The notes below the pieces were generated by a model. The model did not search any database. It saw only the letters and a program-made list of their open reading frames with translations, and was not told the origin of the DNA. Positions 16,374-24,649 of a stretch of DNA of 27,035 bases are shown here, in pieces. This DNA comes from Candidatus Nanohaloarchaea archaeon (GTDB lineage: Archaea > Nanohalarchaeota > Nanosalinia > Nanosalinales > Nanosalinaceae): assembly GCA_042217585.1 (NCBI GenBank), contig JBDGSJ010000025.1, forward strand, positions 1 through 27,035, in the 5' to 3' direction. A program made the translations under genes and the position numbers. Position 1 is the stretch's first letter. Every line of letters starts with the position of its first letter.

Positions 16374-16796
16374 TCAGTTTTCGTCGATGTACTCTCTTAT
16401 ATCCCGGTTCCAGCGCCAGTTCCTATCAGGCGCTTCCTCAAGAGGTATCCAGACAGGCTCGCCCTCCCATGATCCCTCGGGCTCTCCCCCTGTTATCTCC
16501 GCGCTGTGGACCATCTCGACTCCGGGGTGGTCCTCCACGTTCTCCCTTATCCTTTCGAGTATCCTGACGTCGTATCCGGTTTCCTCGCGGACCTCTCTTT
16601 TCGCCGCCTCCTCGAAGCCCTCGTCCCTGTTCACCATCCCTCCGGGGAGCATCAGGTAGCCTCCGGTGTCGACCGCGAGTACCTCGCCCTCCCGGACCAC
16701 AACTGCGGCTGACCCGATCGGGAGACCTACAAGCCGTGACATGACTTCCCAGAAAAGTTTCTCTCCCTTCCATAGCACCAGGGATTTCAGGTTCAC
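16374..16796 (-). CDS. NUDIX hydrolase
   Basis: Nudix box GGMVNRDEGFEEAAKREVREETG. Confidence 0.9.
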   Translation of the reverse strand: MNLKSLVLWKGEKLFWEVMSRLVGLPIGSAAVVVREGEVLAVDTGGYLMLPGGMVNRDEGFEEAAKREVREETGYDVRILERIRENVEDHPGVEMVHSAEITGGEPEGSWEGEPVWIPLEEAPDRNWRWNRDIREYIDEN

Positions 16797-16926
16797 GGTT
16801 CCGGTTTTAGGGCGGAAAGTTATCAGTTCAACGGTCGGAGCCGTTATAAGTCAAGACGCTCTTTTTTATCTCTATGAGCGGACTGGAAATCATGACGCTG
16901 GAGGCCTTCTGGACCGCTGGAAATAT

Positions 16927-17172
16927 GTAAACTACCCGCTACCAATCAGAGATTGGAAGGGGGCTTTCGAGTGTTACTCGCCCTCGAACGTCCTTGCGAC
17001 ATCGGGGTCAATGCTTCCTCGAATCACAGGGCCGGTTTACAACGGTTCCGAGCCTCGAACCGCCAGAACCTCAGTGGTTCTGGAGCGACCCGCTCAACCC
17101 TAAGGTCTCCACCGGGACAAGGCTTGCTAGTCCCAGACAGCAGTATTTCCTGCCGTTCATGGGAGTATGAGA
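16927..17172 (-). ncRNA. TnpB omega-RNA (reRNA)-like structured RNA
   Basis: A run of stem-loops (ACGGCAG/CTGCTGT, CTGGGAC/GTCCCGG, AGGGTTG/CGGCCCT, GAGCG/CGCTC, CCAGAACC/GGTTCTGG, CGGTTC/GAACCG, CGAGT/ACTCG), CCGGTGGAGA and GAGGAAGCA motifs, and the right-end hairpin as terminus. The 5' end is estimated from the TATA box. Confidence 0.65.
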
Positions 17173-17196
17173 CAGGAAACAATTATACTCGAAACC

Positions 17197-17204
17197 TTAT
17201 AAAA
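17197..17204 (-). promoter_or_regulatory. TATA box inside the mini-element, oriented to drive the structured RNA
   Basis: Minus-strand TTTTATAA directly after the left-end hairpin. Confidence 0.6.
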
Positions 17205-17572
17205 GGCAATTCACTCCCGCTACCTAACTCGGCTTCGCCTCATGAGGAAGGGGACTCCTTGCCATGAAAGTTGAACTCCCCGATGAAACGCCGCTAGACG
17301 TGGATAGCAGTGCAAAAGCACTGAAAAGCAAAAGCTTGCGGTTCCCTGACCCGGATCTCTGAATCGGGCGATCTCTTTCTACCGTTTTCACCACCGCAGA
17401 AAAGCTACAAACCTCTAACATTTTTAAATGGTTTGAAGAGCTGAAACCTCTCTAAAGGTTTTAAACGTATCGGAGAAAGGATACTGGGCGGTGAAAGACT
17501 ATAGGTTCCGGGTTCGGCTGGAAAAAGCACCGATCAGGTAAGTTGTCAGTCATCTAGAAAGGGGAAAAACAG

Positions 17573-17686
17573 TCTGGCGGCGTATCCACGCTTCCGCCTC
17601 GCGGCAGTACTGGTGGAATCGCTGGAGGACTTAACTTCCGTGTTCGGAATGGGTACGGGTGTTGCCCCTCCGCTTTGGCCGCCAGT
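17573..17686 (-). rRNA. rrf: 5S rRNA (unlinked)
   Basis: CTGGCGGC/GCCGCCAG helix I, conserved ACACCCGTACCCATTCCGAACACGGAAGTTAAG, and AGTAC loop E motif. Confidence 0.97.
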
Positions 17687-17709
17687 ACCTAACTTAGAGG
17701 GGTGAAACC

Positions 17710-17716
17710 TTATAAA
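17710..17716 (-). promoter_or_regulatory. TATA box for 5S rRNA, overlapping the upstream stop codon
   Basis: Minus-strand TTTATAA about 25 nt upstream of the 5S 5' end. Confidence 0.6.
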
Positions 17717-23505: not shown

Positions 23506-24504
23506 TCAGTTCTGGAGCTCTATCTCCAGTTCGTCGGCGATCTCCCTGTAGTTCTTCCTGACCGTGACCTCTGTCACGCCGATGACGTCGGCGATCTCGG
23601 TCTGTGTCATGTCACGGTCCCTCAGAGCGGACACTATGTAGAACACTCCGGCGACAACGCTCTTGGGACTTCTCCCTGCGAGCACGCCGTTGTTCCGGGC
23701 GTCCTTGATGATCTGCCGGGCCTCGGCCTGTGCCTCGCCGTTGAACCCGAGTTTCTCTCCGTACCGCGGGATGAAGTGTTCGGGCTTCGCAGGGTCGATG
23801 CTCATGTCCAGCTCCCTGGCGACATACCTGTAGGTCTTCCCGAGCTTCCTCTTGTCGATCGAGGAGGCGGTCGAGACCTCGTCAAGGGTCCTTGGGACCT
23901 GCTGCTTCCTCGATACAAGGTATGCGAGCGCGGCGACCGTCGGCTCGATCCCTCTTCCCTTGATGATCTCCTCTTCACGGGCCTTCTCAGTCAGCCTCGC
24001 GGCCTCCTCGAAGACGGACTCGGGGAGGTCCAGCTGAGATACCAGTCTCTTCAGCTCGGAGAGTGCGGTTTCAAGTGCCCGGCTCTTCGAGTTCTCCCGT
24101 CTGCGGTCCCACTTCTTCATCCTGTAGTACTTGCCTCTCTTGCTGCTGGAGACCTTGTTCAGCTCTCCGCTCTTTCCTATCTTTGTTCCCATCCCGCGGT
24201 CCGACTTGGTGAATGTGATGGGACTACCGGACCGGGATTTCTTCTCCTTCTCCTCGGAGTTGAAGGCCCTCCACTCCTGCGATAGATCTATCTTCGACTC
24301 ATCCACGATGGTGCCGCAGTTCTTGCAGTAAAGCTCACCGTTCGAGCTGTCCCTCACGAACTTGCTTGTCCCGCAACTCGGACATTCGGAGGAGGCTTCC
24401 TCCTCCTTCATCTCGGCTTTCACGGGGATGGTATCATCCCCAGATTCTGATTCCGGGACGACATCGTTTTCGTTTTCGGCTATAGGTTCTTCGAGTTCTG
24501 TCAT
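23506..24504 (-). CDS. tfb: Transcription initiation factor IIB (TFB)
   Basis: CPSC...CKNC zinc ribbon, EWRAF B-reader, two cyclin folds (KGRG, AGRSP, TQTEIADVIGVTEVTVR). Start at ATG 24504 lies downstream of TATAAAA. Confidence 0.95.
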   Translation of the reverse strand: MTELEEPIAENENDVVPESESGDDTIPVKAEMKEEEASSECPSCGTSKFVRDSSNGELYCKNCGTIVDESKIDLSQEWRAFNSEEKEKKSRSGSPITFTKSDRGMGTKIGKSGELNKVSSSKRGKYYRMKKWDRRRENSKSRALETALSELKRLVSQLDLPESVFEEAARLTEKAREEEIIKGRGIEPTVAALAYLVSRKQQVPRTLDEVSTASSIDKRKLGKTYRYVARELDMSIDPAKPEHFIPRYGEKLGFNGEAQAEARQIIKDARNNGVLAGRSPKSVVAGVFYIVSALRDRDMTQTEIADVIGVTEVTVRKNYREIADELEIELQN

Positions 24505-24649
24505 ATTACCGTTATTGGAAAAAAGCCTTTTATATCTTGTTGTGACTATACCATCACACAATTACCTTCCAGGGGTCGATTTTCGCCACTGGACCTCATT
24601 GGGGGAAAATTTTTAGTTATCTTTCGATGGAGAAGAAATCTCCCGGTCC

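Follow-up and report, generated by a model that had tools for sequence, protein, structure and literature searches.

A protein-free IS200/IS605 derivative with a predicted, enlarged omega-RNA scaffold beside the 5S rRNA gene of a nanohaloarchaeon

The window, meaning here the whole stretch of 27,035 nucleotides that was analysed (contig JBDGSJ010000025.1 of a Candidatus Nanohaloarchaea archaeon), is contig C18 of a host genome (G000) assembled to 0.98 Mb in 38 contigs and 89.7% complete. On its minus strand lie a 5S rRNA gene (17572..17686, Rfam RF00001, 73.4 bits) and a Nudix hydrolase gene (16374..16796). Between the two sits a minus-strand element of 344 bp (16927..17270), found in a single copy in this assembly. 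The element is a protein-free derivative of the IS200/IS605 transposons, that is, a PATE or stand-alone omega-RNA locus. The IS200/IS605 origin put forward in the original prediction is upheld, since homologous ends adjoin tnpA or tnpB genes in relatives. Gene-less, omega-RNA-encoding IS605 derivatives are an already published kind of element, as described in PMC3119063, PMC4615843, PMC10055086 and PMC10691335. The stretch between the element and the 5S gene (17271-17560) is about 290 bp of extra sequence, compared with a gap of 50-100 bp in relatives. It contains a TATA-like box near 17430, resembling the stretch before the 5S gene in L125, as well as a 60-nt stem-loop (17338-17398) and T runs, and gave no Rfam or tRNA match. 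When the element is excised in silico, the longest open stretch is 87 codons. It is also noted that the genome has two TFB genes, one in the window (23506-24561) and one at L001, and the zinc ribbon of the second is the only weak match to PF07282.

The right end of the element (16927..16963, minus strand) is composed of an imperfect hairpin (16963-16935) and the terminal GTTTAC with its cleavage motif TTAC. The sequence GGGTAGTTTAC stops at 16927 and the expected flank then follows, in agreement with the boundary and the flank proposed earlier; homologous ends and the pairing of guide and cleavage motif place the end at the same position. The left end (17205..17270, minus strand) is composed of a leader, a DNA guide GAGT (17257-17254) and an imperfect hairpin (17253-17216) with the outer stem GGCAA/TTGCC. 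It is homologous to the left ends of the tnpB element L065/L011 and of L074, an element with both tnpA and tnpB. The two hairpins have the same orientation and have CCCGCTACC...GGAAGGGG in common (16935-16962 and 17216-17253), as had been noticed at the outset; this pattern gives two matches, against none in 100 shuffles. Taken by itself as DNA, each hairpin falls below significance (z -1.4 and -1.7).

The left boundary had been placed at 17263, for a 337-bp element preceded by TTCAT as the transposon-adjacent motif. Homologous left ends keep about seven bases beyond 17263, and the intact element L074 opens with CTTTCAT after TTTAA; the window has the identical opening after TTCAA. TTCAT is therefore internal to the element and was rejected as TAM on the L074 left end and the pairing between guide and motif. 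With the left boundary at 17270, the length becomes 344 bp and the motif becomes TTCAA (17271..17275, minus strand, outside the element), the target of TnpA and the predicted TAM of TnpB. The same motif precedes L011, L065 and L080, and it pairs with the left guide GAGT. Thus, the right end of the original prediction stands, while the left end and the TAM had to be moved.

The anatomy of the element is that of a PATE. It is 344 bp long without a recognisable protein gene; the sole fully internal ORF of at least 70 aa (16953-17267, plus strand) matches none of the NCBIfam families, which agrees with the proposed lack of an internal tnpA or tnpB. Near-terminal palindromes are present, and a search for the same ends beside transposon genes elsewhere found them bordering tnpB (L065, L033) and tnpA plus tnpB (L074). 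There are no terminal inverted repeats among the repeats listed for the window and no target duplication, the flanks TTCAA and ATATT being different. Both ends have a DNA guide 5' of the hairpin that fits a motif of 4-5 nt, GAGT with TCAA at the left and AAAG with TTAC at the right. In IS608, the guides AAAG and GAAT (GANT) pair with TTAC and TCAA, respectively (PMC5934647). The left guide covaries with its target motif, as 10 of 15 ends fit fully with three Watson-Crick pairs, three more fit with one G-T pair and two fail, in counts that are biased towards the rule by the placing of left boundaries by eye. At the right, the guide fits the cleavage motif fully in 14 of 18 ends and with one mismatch in three; the L074 row fits by eye. 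The base-by-base register of the pairing is presumably that of IS608. A DNA search of 61 genomes located the ends in three others (G005, G022, G051), and three further genomes were matched at the 5S gene only.

Directly after the left end, a TATA box TTTTATAA is found at 17204-17197 (feature 17196..17204, minus strand). A 13-mer, TTTATAAGGTTTC, has just two sites in the genome, 17191-17203 in the element and 17704-17716 in the 5S promoter, which may reflect convergence or local capture. From the 23-nt offset of the 5S promoter, the start of transcription is predicted near 17173, just before the first helix. The upstream BRE is weak, scoring -1.8 against a 10th percentile of -1.3 in a set of 177 host promoters. 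The rough matrix derived from this set gives the promoter 8.5 on the sense strand versus 6.5 on the antisense strand (10th-90th percentile 6.5-13.0). In 5 of 7 elements, among them the parent L065, a TATA-like box stands at a distance of 55-78 nt from the left end, and none was found in L069. The box of the window element is thus at the promoter position of its parent, as expected for the retained promoter suggested at first. A scan for sigma-70 promoters and terminators, which is ill-suited to archaea, found no terminator.

The minus-strand RNA from 17175 to 16905 folds at -108.8 kcal/mol (z -3.41), a value equalled by none of 200 shuffles, and the interior of stem-loops foreseen in the original prediction is borne out. 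All of the following features are on the minus strand. The predicted RNA begins with a 5' domain (17131..17170), in which a closing stem (17164-17160/17135-17131) surrounds a hairpin with a GAAAUA loop. Further hairpins with the CCGGTGGAGA motif follow (17092..17130); their structure, taken from the fold, is uncertain, and they are not kept in L080 or L065. The homology-placed order is then stem 1, the loop strand GTAAAC, a second stem and the right-end hairpin. Stem 1 (17029..17091) pairs 17091-17086 with 17034-17029, and its loop consists of two inserted hairpins (17043..17083, that is, 17083-17063 and 17062-17043) and the pseudoknot strand GTAAAC (17035..17040), which can pair with the six terminal bases of the element. 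The next stem (17023-17018/16971-16966) surrounds a long hairpin (feature 16964..17023), includes the DNA guide AAAG at 16967-16964, and is the part closest to L080. With the pseudoknot uncounted, the fold placed by homology is less favourable than the free fold by 4.1 kcal/mol; the free fold favours a long competing helix and leaves stem 1 with an ensemble probability near zero. The predicted guide (16910-16925) and the 5' hairpin (17144-17159) are complementary at 13 of 16 positions, as are 0.25-1.5% of 400 random guides. This complementarity was treated as chance, being absent in six other elements and having zero ensemble probability.

The core of this scaffold is supported by covariation. 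In the 14-row alignment A6, 87.6% of 274 cells of the model pairs are paired and 13 of 26 pairs have changes on both sides, figures that lean towards the model because the alignment was fitted to the structure and four of its rows built the model. The pseudoknot GTAAAC/GTTTAC stands outside the model, and 93.6% of its 47 cells are paired, against at most 55% when the strands are slid. Its covariation is modest, with just two pairs changed on both sides and 32 of 500 shuffles as high; more matching cases were seen by eye in related elements. Covariation thus shows stem 1, the stem that follows it and the pseudoknot with the terminal GTTTAC to form what appears to be a TnpB-type core with peripheral additions. 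This covarying core counts in support of the original prediction, and the pairing between the stem-1 loop and the terminal bases agrees with that of stand-alone omega-RNAs.

The scaffold without its right-end hairpin was compared with the 3' ends of eight tnpB loci, of which only L065 stands out, at z 4.1 with none of 300 shuffles as high; the next best is L022 at z 1.9. Much closer are the gene-less L069 (z 17.9) and, for the 3' core, L080 (z 25). Homology to a tnpB 3' end, as expected of a stand-alone omega-RNA, was accordingly found, and the similarity to the nearest TnpB-coded RNA, that of L065, is only modest. The motifs CCGGTGGAGA and GAGGAAGCA, which had been likened to TnpB scaffolds, are both in the element. 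However, they mark another clade, that of L024, whose score against the scaffold (19.0) equals the shuffle mean (19.1, z ~0), and an L024-type parent was rejected as no better than chance.

L065 is a 395-aa TnpB element in the genome G065 (NF040570, 148 bits against a cut-off of 100). The D/E/D residues are visible in its protein sequence; its TAM is TTCAA and its end ATTTAC. In the same genome, L080 (1462-1738) is a gene-less sister of 277 bp with the TAM TTCAA, the end GTTTAC and a compact core. A third locus there, L091 (contig C78), is a deletion intermediate that joins the promoter and six tnpB codons to the tnpB C-terminus and the scaffold. Homology along this series from L065 through L091 to L080 shows internal deletion, bringing the promoter to the RNA, as the origin of the gene-less form. 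L091 has also acquired hairpins 5' of stem 1. Across the order, 14 of 70 genomes have a TnpB above the Pfam cut-off and four have a TnpA. The covariance model R1, built from four sequences, matches in five of these 70 genomes, and, in genome sets from other phyla, in 1 of 38, 0 of 101, 1 of 101 (a match discarded after inspection) and 0 of 1. Among these 70 + 38 + 101 + 101 + 1 genomes, R1 found no TnpB-coding element with the expanded scaffold. One candidate, L095 (E 8e-5), was dropped as it has no element ends. The L065 protein used as a query found itself alone in genomes, nothing in viruses, and haloarchaeal TnpBs at 31-37% in plasmids. Pattern scans for the right end plus core in viral contigs, and for the core in metagenomes, gave no match.

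No partner for the element was detected in the host. TnpB was not found in G000 by PF07282, NF040570, the L065 query or tblastn, nor TnpA by PF01797 or tblastn; the five partner searches had working controls or queries, and in an assembly that is 89.7% complete the absence of these proteins is unproven. The TnpA, TnpB or TnpB-derived regulator that had been proposed to act in trans is therefore unsupported in this host, in which no compatible effector was detected. The element is stranded in the assembly, since neither TnpA nor TnpB was found there.

The survey of the neighbouring gene, which 40 genomes carry, covered 30 loci including that of the window; by the R1 model only the window's own locus is positive, and the element is absent from all 29 relatives' loci. 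The 5S gene abuts the Nudix gene in five of the 29. No other copy was found in the host assembly. A second, diverged copy is present in run X2, with 22 letters and 8 gap positions different over 17035-17230. An X2 contig of 3,179 nt follows 17019-16926 and then continues into another right flank. Runs X1 and X2 belong to one study that possibly includes the window's own sample, and the window copy seen there is not independent. None of the 31 listed changes of the second copy falls in the 39 core positions; two substitutions are not listed. Compensatory changes are found at 17152/17141 and 17151/17142, two changes (17135, 17127) break pairs, and the arms of the hairpin 17083-17063 are rewritten with the pairing kept, as read by hand. 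As to an empty site, no base-exact 16926/17271 joint is among the four joints listed in four runs. In run X3, a contig of depth 3 keeps to the window (99%) over 16671-16916 and diverges afterwards; 17018-17539 has no cover in this run. The other right flank of the second copy and the absence at 29 relatives' loci would fit mobility of the family.

Taken together, these observations suggest a mini-element with its tnpB deleted, mobilised in trans and transcribed into an omega-RNA that a TnpB of the L065 type could load, and we hold this proposal as a whole to be reasonably probable. Loss of tnpB would have left the left end and promoter fused to the omega-RNA scaffold and the right end, as homology shows for the related series. 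The element would have inserted 3' of TTCAA between the 5S rRNA and Nudix genes, moving as single-stranded DNA by TnpA supplied in trans, as the anatomy of the ends suggests. Minus-strand transcription that starts at about 17173, crosses 16927 and runs on into the flank is rather probable. For the last step, which supposes an L065-type TnpB in the cell that would trim the RNA, load it and cut TTCAA + ATATTTCCAGCGGTCC, the element's own empty site, and so favour retention of the element, we would put the chances at slightly under even.

The reading that competes best, although we consider it unlikely, is that the element is an inert relic, a PATE moved passively by its DNA ends with an inherited scaffold no longer expressed or loadable. 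The single copy in a host without detected TnpA or TnpB would be consistent with such a fate, as would the weak BRE and the competing free fold, and PATEs of Haloquadratum have been read as decay products (PMC3119063). However, the two copies have diverged in the periphery with the core unchanged and hairpins kept by compensatory change. The pseudoknot and both DNA guides are intact, and the TATA box is at a fitting distance from the first helix. These features argue against a relic.

The scaffold is enlarged, as had been claimed. Relative to L080 and L065, its 5' domain is larger and the loop of the pseudoknot has gained the two hairpins, which L091, L092 and L094 lack as well. The 45-nt insertion in the pseudoknot loop might block loading. 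A comparable form is L069, a gene-less element of 386 bp from a distant host, with an insertion at the same place and a 5' domain similar to 17165-17092 of the window (z 6.8); the inserted hairpins alone show no similarity to it (z -0.1), and against L065 they reach only z 2.6 (4 of 150 shuffles). An origin of the 5' domain as a remnant of the lost tnpB was rejected (z -0.1 against L065). The added domains may be neutral, since the ISDra2 omega-RNA loses the part before its stem 1 by trimming and can do without it, as described in PMC10097598. A more ambitious view, which we regard as doubtful, is that an omega-RNA lineage freed from the tnpB frame evolves as an RNA gene of its own, with its protein-binding core under selection and functional helical domains gained, recurring in distant archaea. 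The gained domains would then be the 5' domain with its G(A/G)AAUA-loop hairpin and the two pseudoknot-loop hairpins. They would stabilise the RNA, set which TnpB it loads or help it to outcompete the parent RNA, and the element, on this view a TnpB parasite, would mark a natural transition from omega-RNAs bound to a transposon towards free guide genes.

The enlargement can also be read as the fit to a TnpB other than L065, one whose own RNA has the extra helices, or as making the RNA a decoy for TnpA or TnpB instead of a guide. L069, with its same-place insertion and similar 5' domain in a distant host, would be in line with this reading, and so would the similarity to L065 of just z 4.1; a role of PATE RNAs as TnpA competitors was proposed in PMC4615843. 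It is nevertheless improbable, as R1 found no TnpB element of the expanded form in the genomes listed above, L091 shows a gain of hairpins after loss of the ORF, and ISDra2 does not need the sequence 5' of stem 1, which is trimmed away (PMC10097598).

The guide of such an RNA would be the host flank outside the element, 16-20 nt at 16907..16926 (minus strand), by the established biology of TnpB (PMC10097598, PMC10691335). Its position, proposed earlier as about 16926-16907, is supported. The host genome has no site of TAM plus guide within four mismatches, and none of 15 viral 16-mer matches of the guide is preceded by TTCAA. The only natural target of the guide is the element's own empty site, as in ordinary TnpB elements (PMC10055086). 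A predicted promoter of its own, and persistence with no nuclease gene nearby, might suggest a domesticated guide directed at a host gene or a virus, used in defence or by a nuclease-dead regulator derived from TnpB. These target searches render such a role very improbable, as do the lack of a TnpB-like protein in the host, the absence at 29 relatives' loci and the different guide of the second copy; the nuclease-dead TnpB gene and conserved host target that accompany TldR-type guides were not found.

Rfam, one of the checks originally suggested, gave no match for the element at gathering thresholds or at E up to 10 (sotRNA, HgcC, IS605-orfB, RNase P and SRP), in a scan that likewise failed to pick up most of the tnpB 3' ends given to it (one weak match in 13 sources). 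At the 3' end of a nanohaloarchaeal tnpB, L030 (1295-1453) matches HgcC at E 0.004, below gathering, in agreement with PMC4615843. A host non-coding RNA (RNase P, SRP or snoRNA-like) or a chance structure by the 5S gene, for which the strong fold and the promoter 13-mer in common with that gene could be cited, is scarcely credible, given the missing Rfam match, the lack of conservation at the locus and, above all, ends and core homologous to tnpA/tnpB elements, by which this reading is largely refuted.

The element, which we classify on sequence features as a well-formed PATE with an omega-RNA scaffold, can be compared with several described systems. PATEs were defined in Haloquadratum walsbyi (PMC3119063), and those of Geobacillus often encode omega-RNAs that need TnpB in trans (PMC10055086). 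As in these accounts, the window element has no ORF and no terminal inverted repeats, similar near-terminal palindromes at both ends, a 4-5 nt target motif, an origin by internal deletion and a retained omega-RNA. It differs from the PATEs described there in its nanohaloarchaeal host without detectable TnpA or TnpB and in a scaffold that is enlarged, not reduced. The stand-alone omega-RNAs of OMEGA systems (Altae-Tran et al. 2021, as summarised in PMC10691335) work in trans, and they share with our element a mobilised guide locus with no effector or transposase and a guide drawn from the flank. Their genomes, however, also hold effector loci, and trans function was shown for them (PMC10691335), while our element is known from sequence and is likened to them without an effector in the same genome. 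The host differs in this respect from G065. The trans test of 2021 by Altae-Tran and colleagues reportedly used IscB.

Halobacterium salinarum has an expressed PATE RNA, VNG_R0052, as well as sotRNAs and HgcC (RF00062) (PMC4615843). Like these, the predicted RNA is a halophilic archaeal, IS1341-derived, intergenic RNA with the right-end hairpin at its end. In the account of PMC4615843, VNG_R0052 is 99 nt of fused ends, whereas the window element has the full core; for the sotRNAs no upstream BRE-TATA was found, whereas our element has a TATA box and no Rfam sot or HgcC match. As in the ISDra2 omega-RNA (PMC10097598), base pairing links the stem-1 loop to the final bases at the right end, and a 16-nt guide from the flank then follows. 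Unlike the ISDra2 RNA as described, ours carries two hairpins within the loop of the pseudoknot, and no tnpB ORF runs across the RNA; the comparison is one of arrangement.

With the kind already known, the gain from this element is modest. It brings a new nanohaloarchaeal TnpB/omega-RNA pair, L065, with the predicted TAM TTCAA, and a natural series in which an intact element is followed by a deletion intermediate and by gene-less forms, both compact and enlarged; the series indicates which sites of the scaffold accept insertions. It also allows a direct test of a PATE RNA loading TnpB in trans. The better case for this is L080, which has a compatible effector in its own genome: G065 holds L065 (244-1551), L080 and tnpA, and this pair with the same TAM is the best one for a trans test.

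Other gene-less elements were met along the way. L003, L013, L016 and L019 (G022, G051) combine the same ends and a TATA box with other scaffolds. Those of L003 and L019 match that of the L024 TnpB clade (z about 14), and L016 is without a clear parent. Another archaeal phylum has L094 (contig C77 of G074), a gene-less element of 271 bp that shows the same pseudoknot and also has a TATA box. L011 (about 110-190) and L060 (about 1410-1540) contain elements of about 75 bp composed of ends only, and in L060 a left end is directly followed by another short element.
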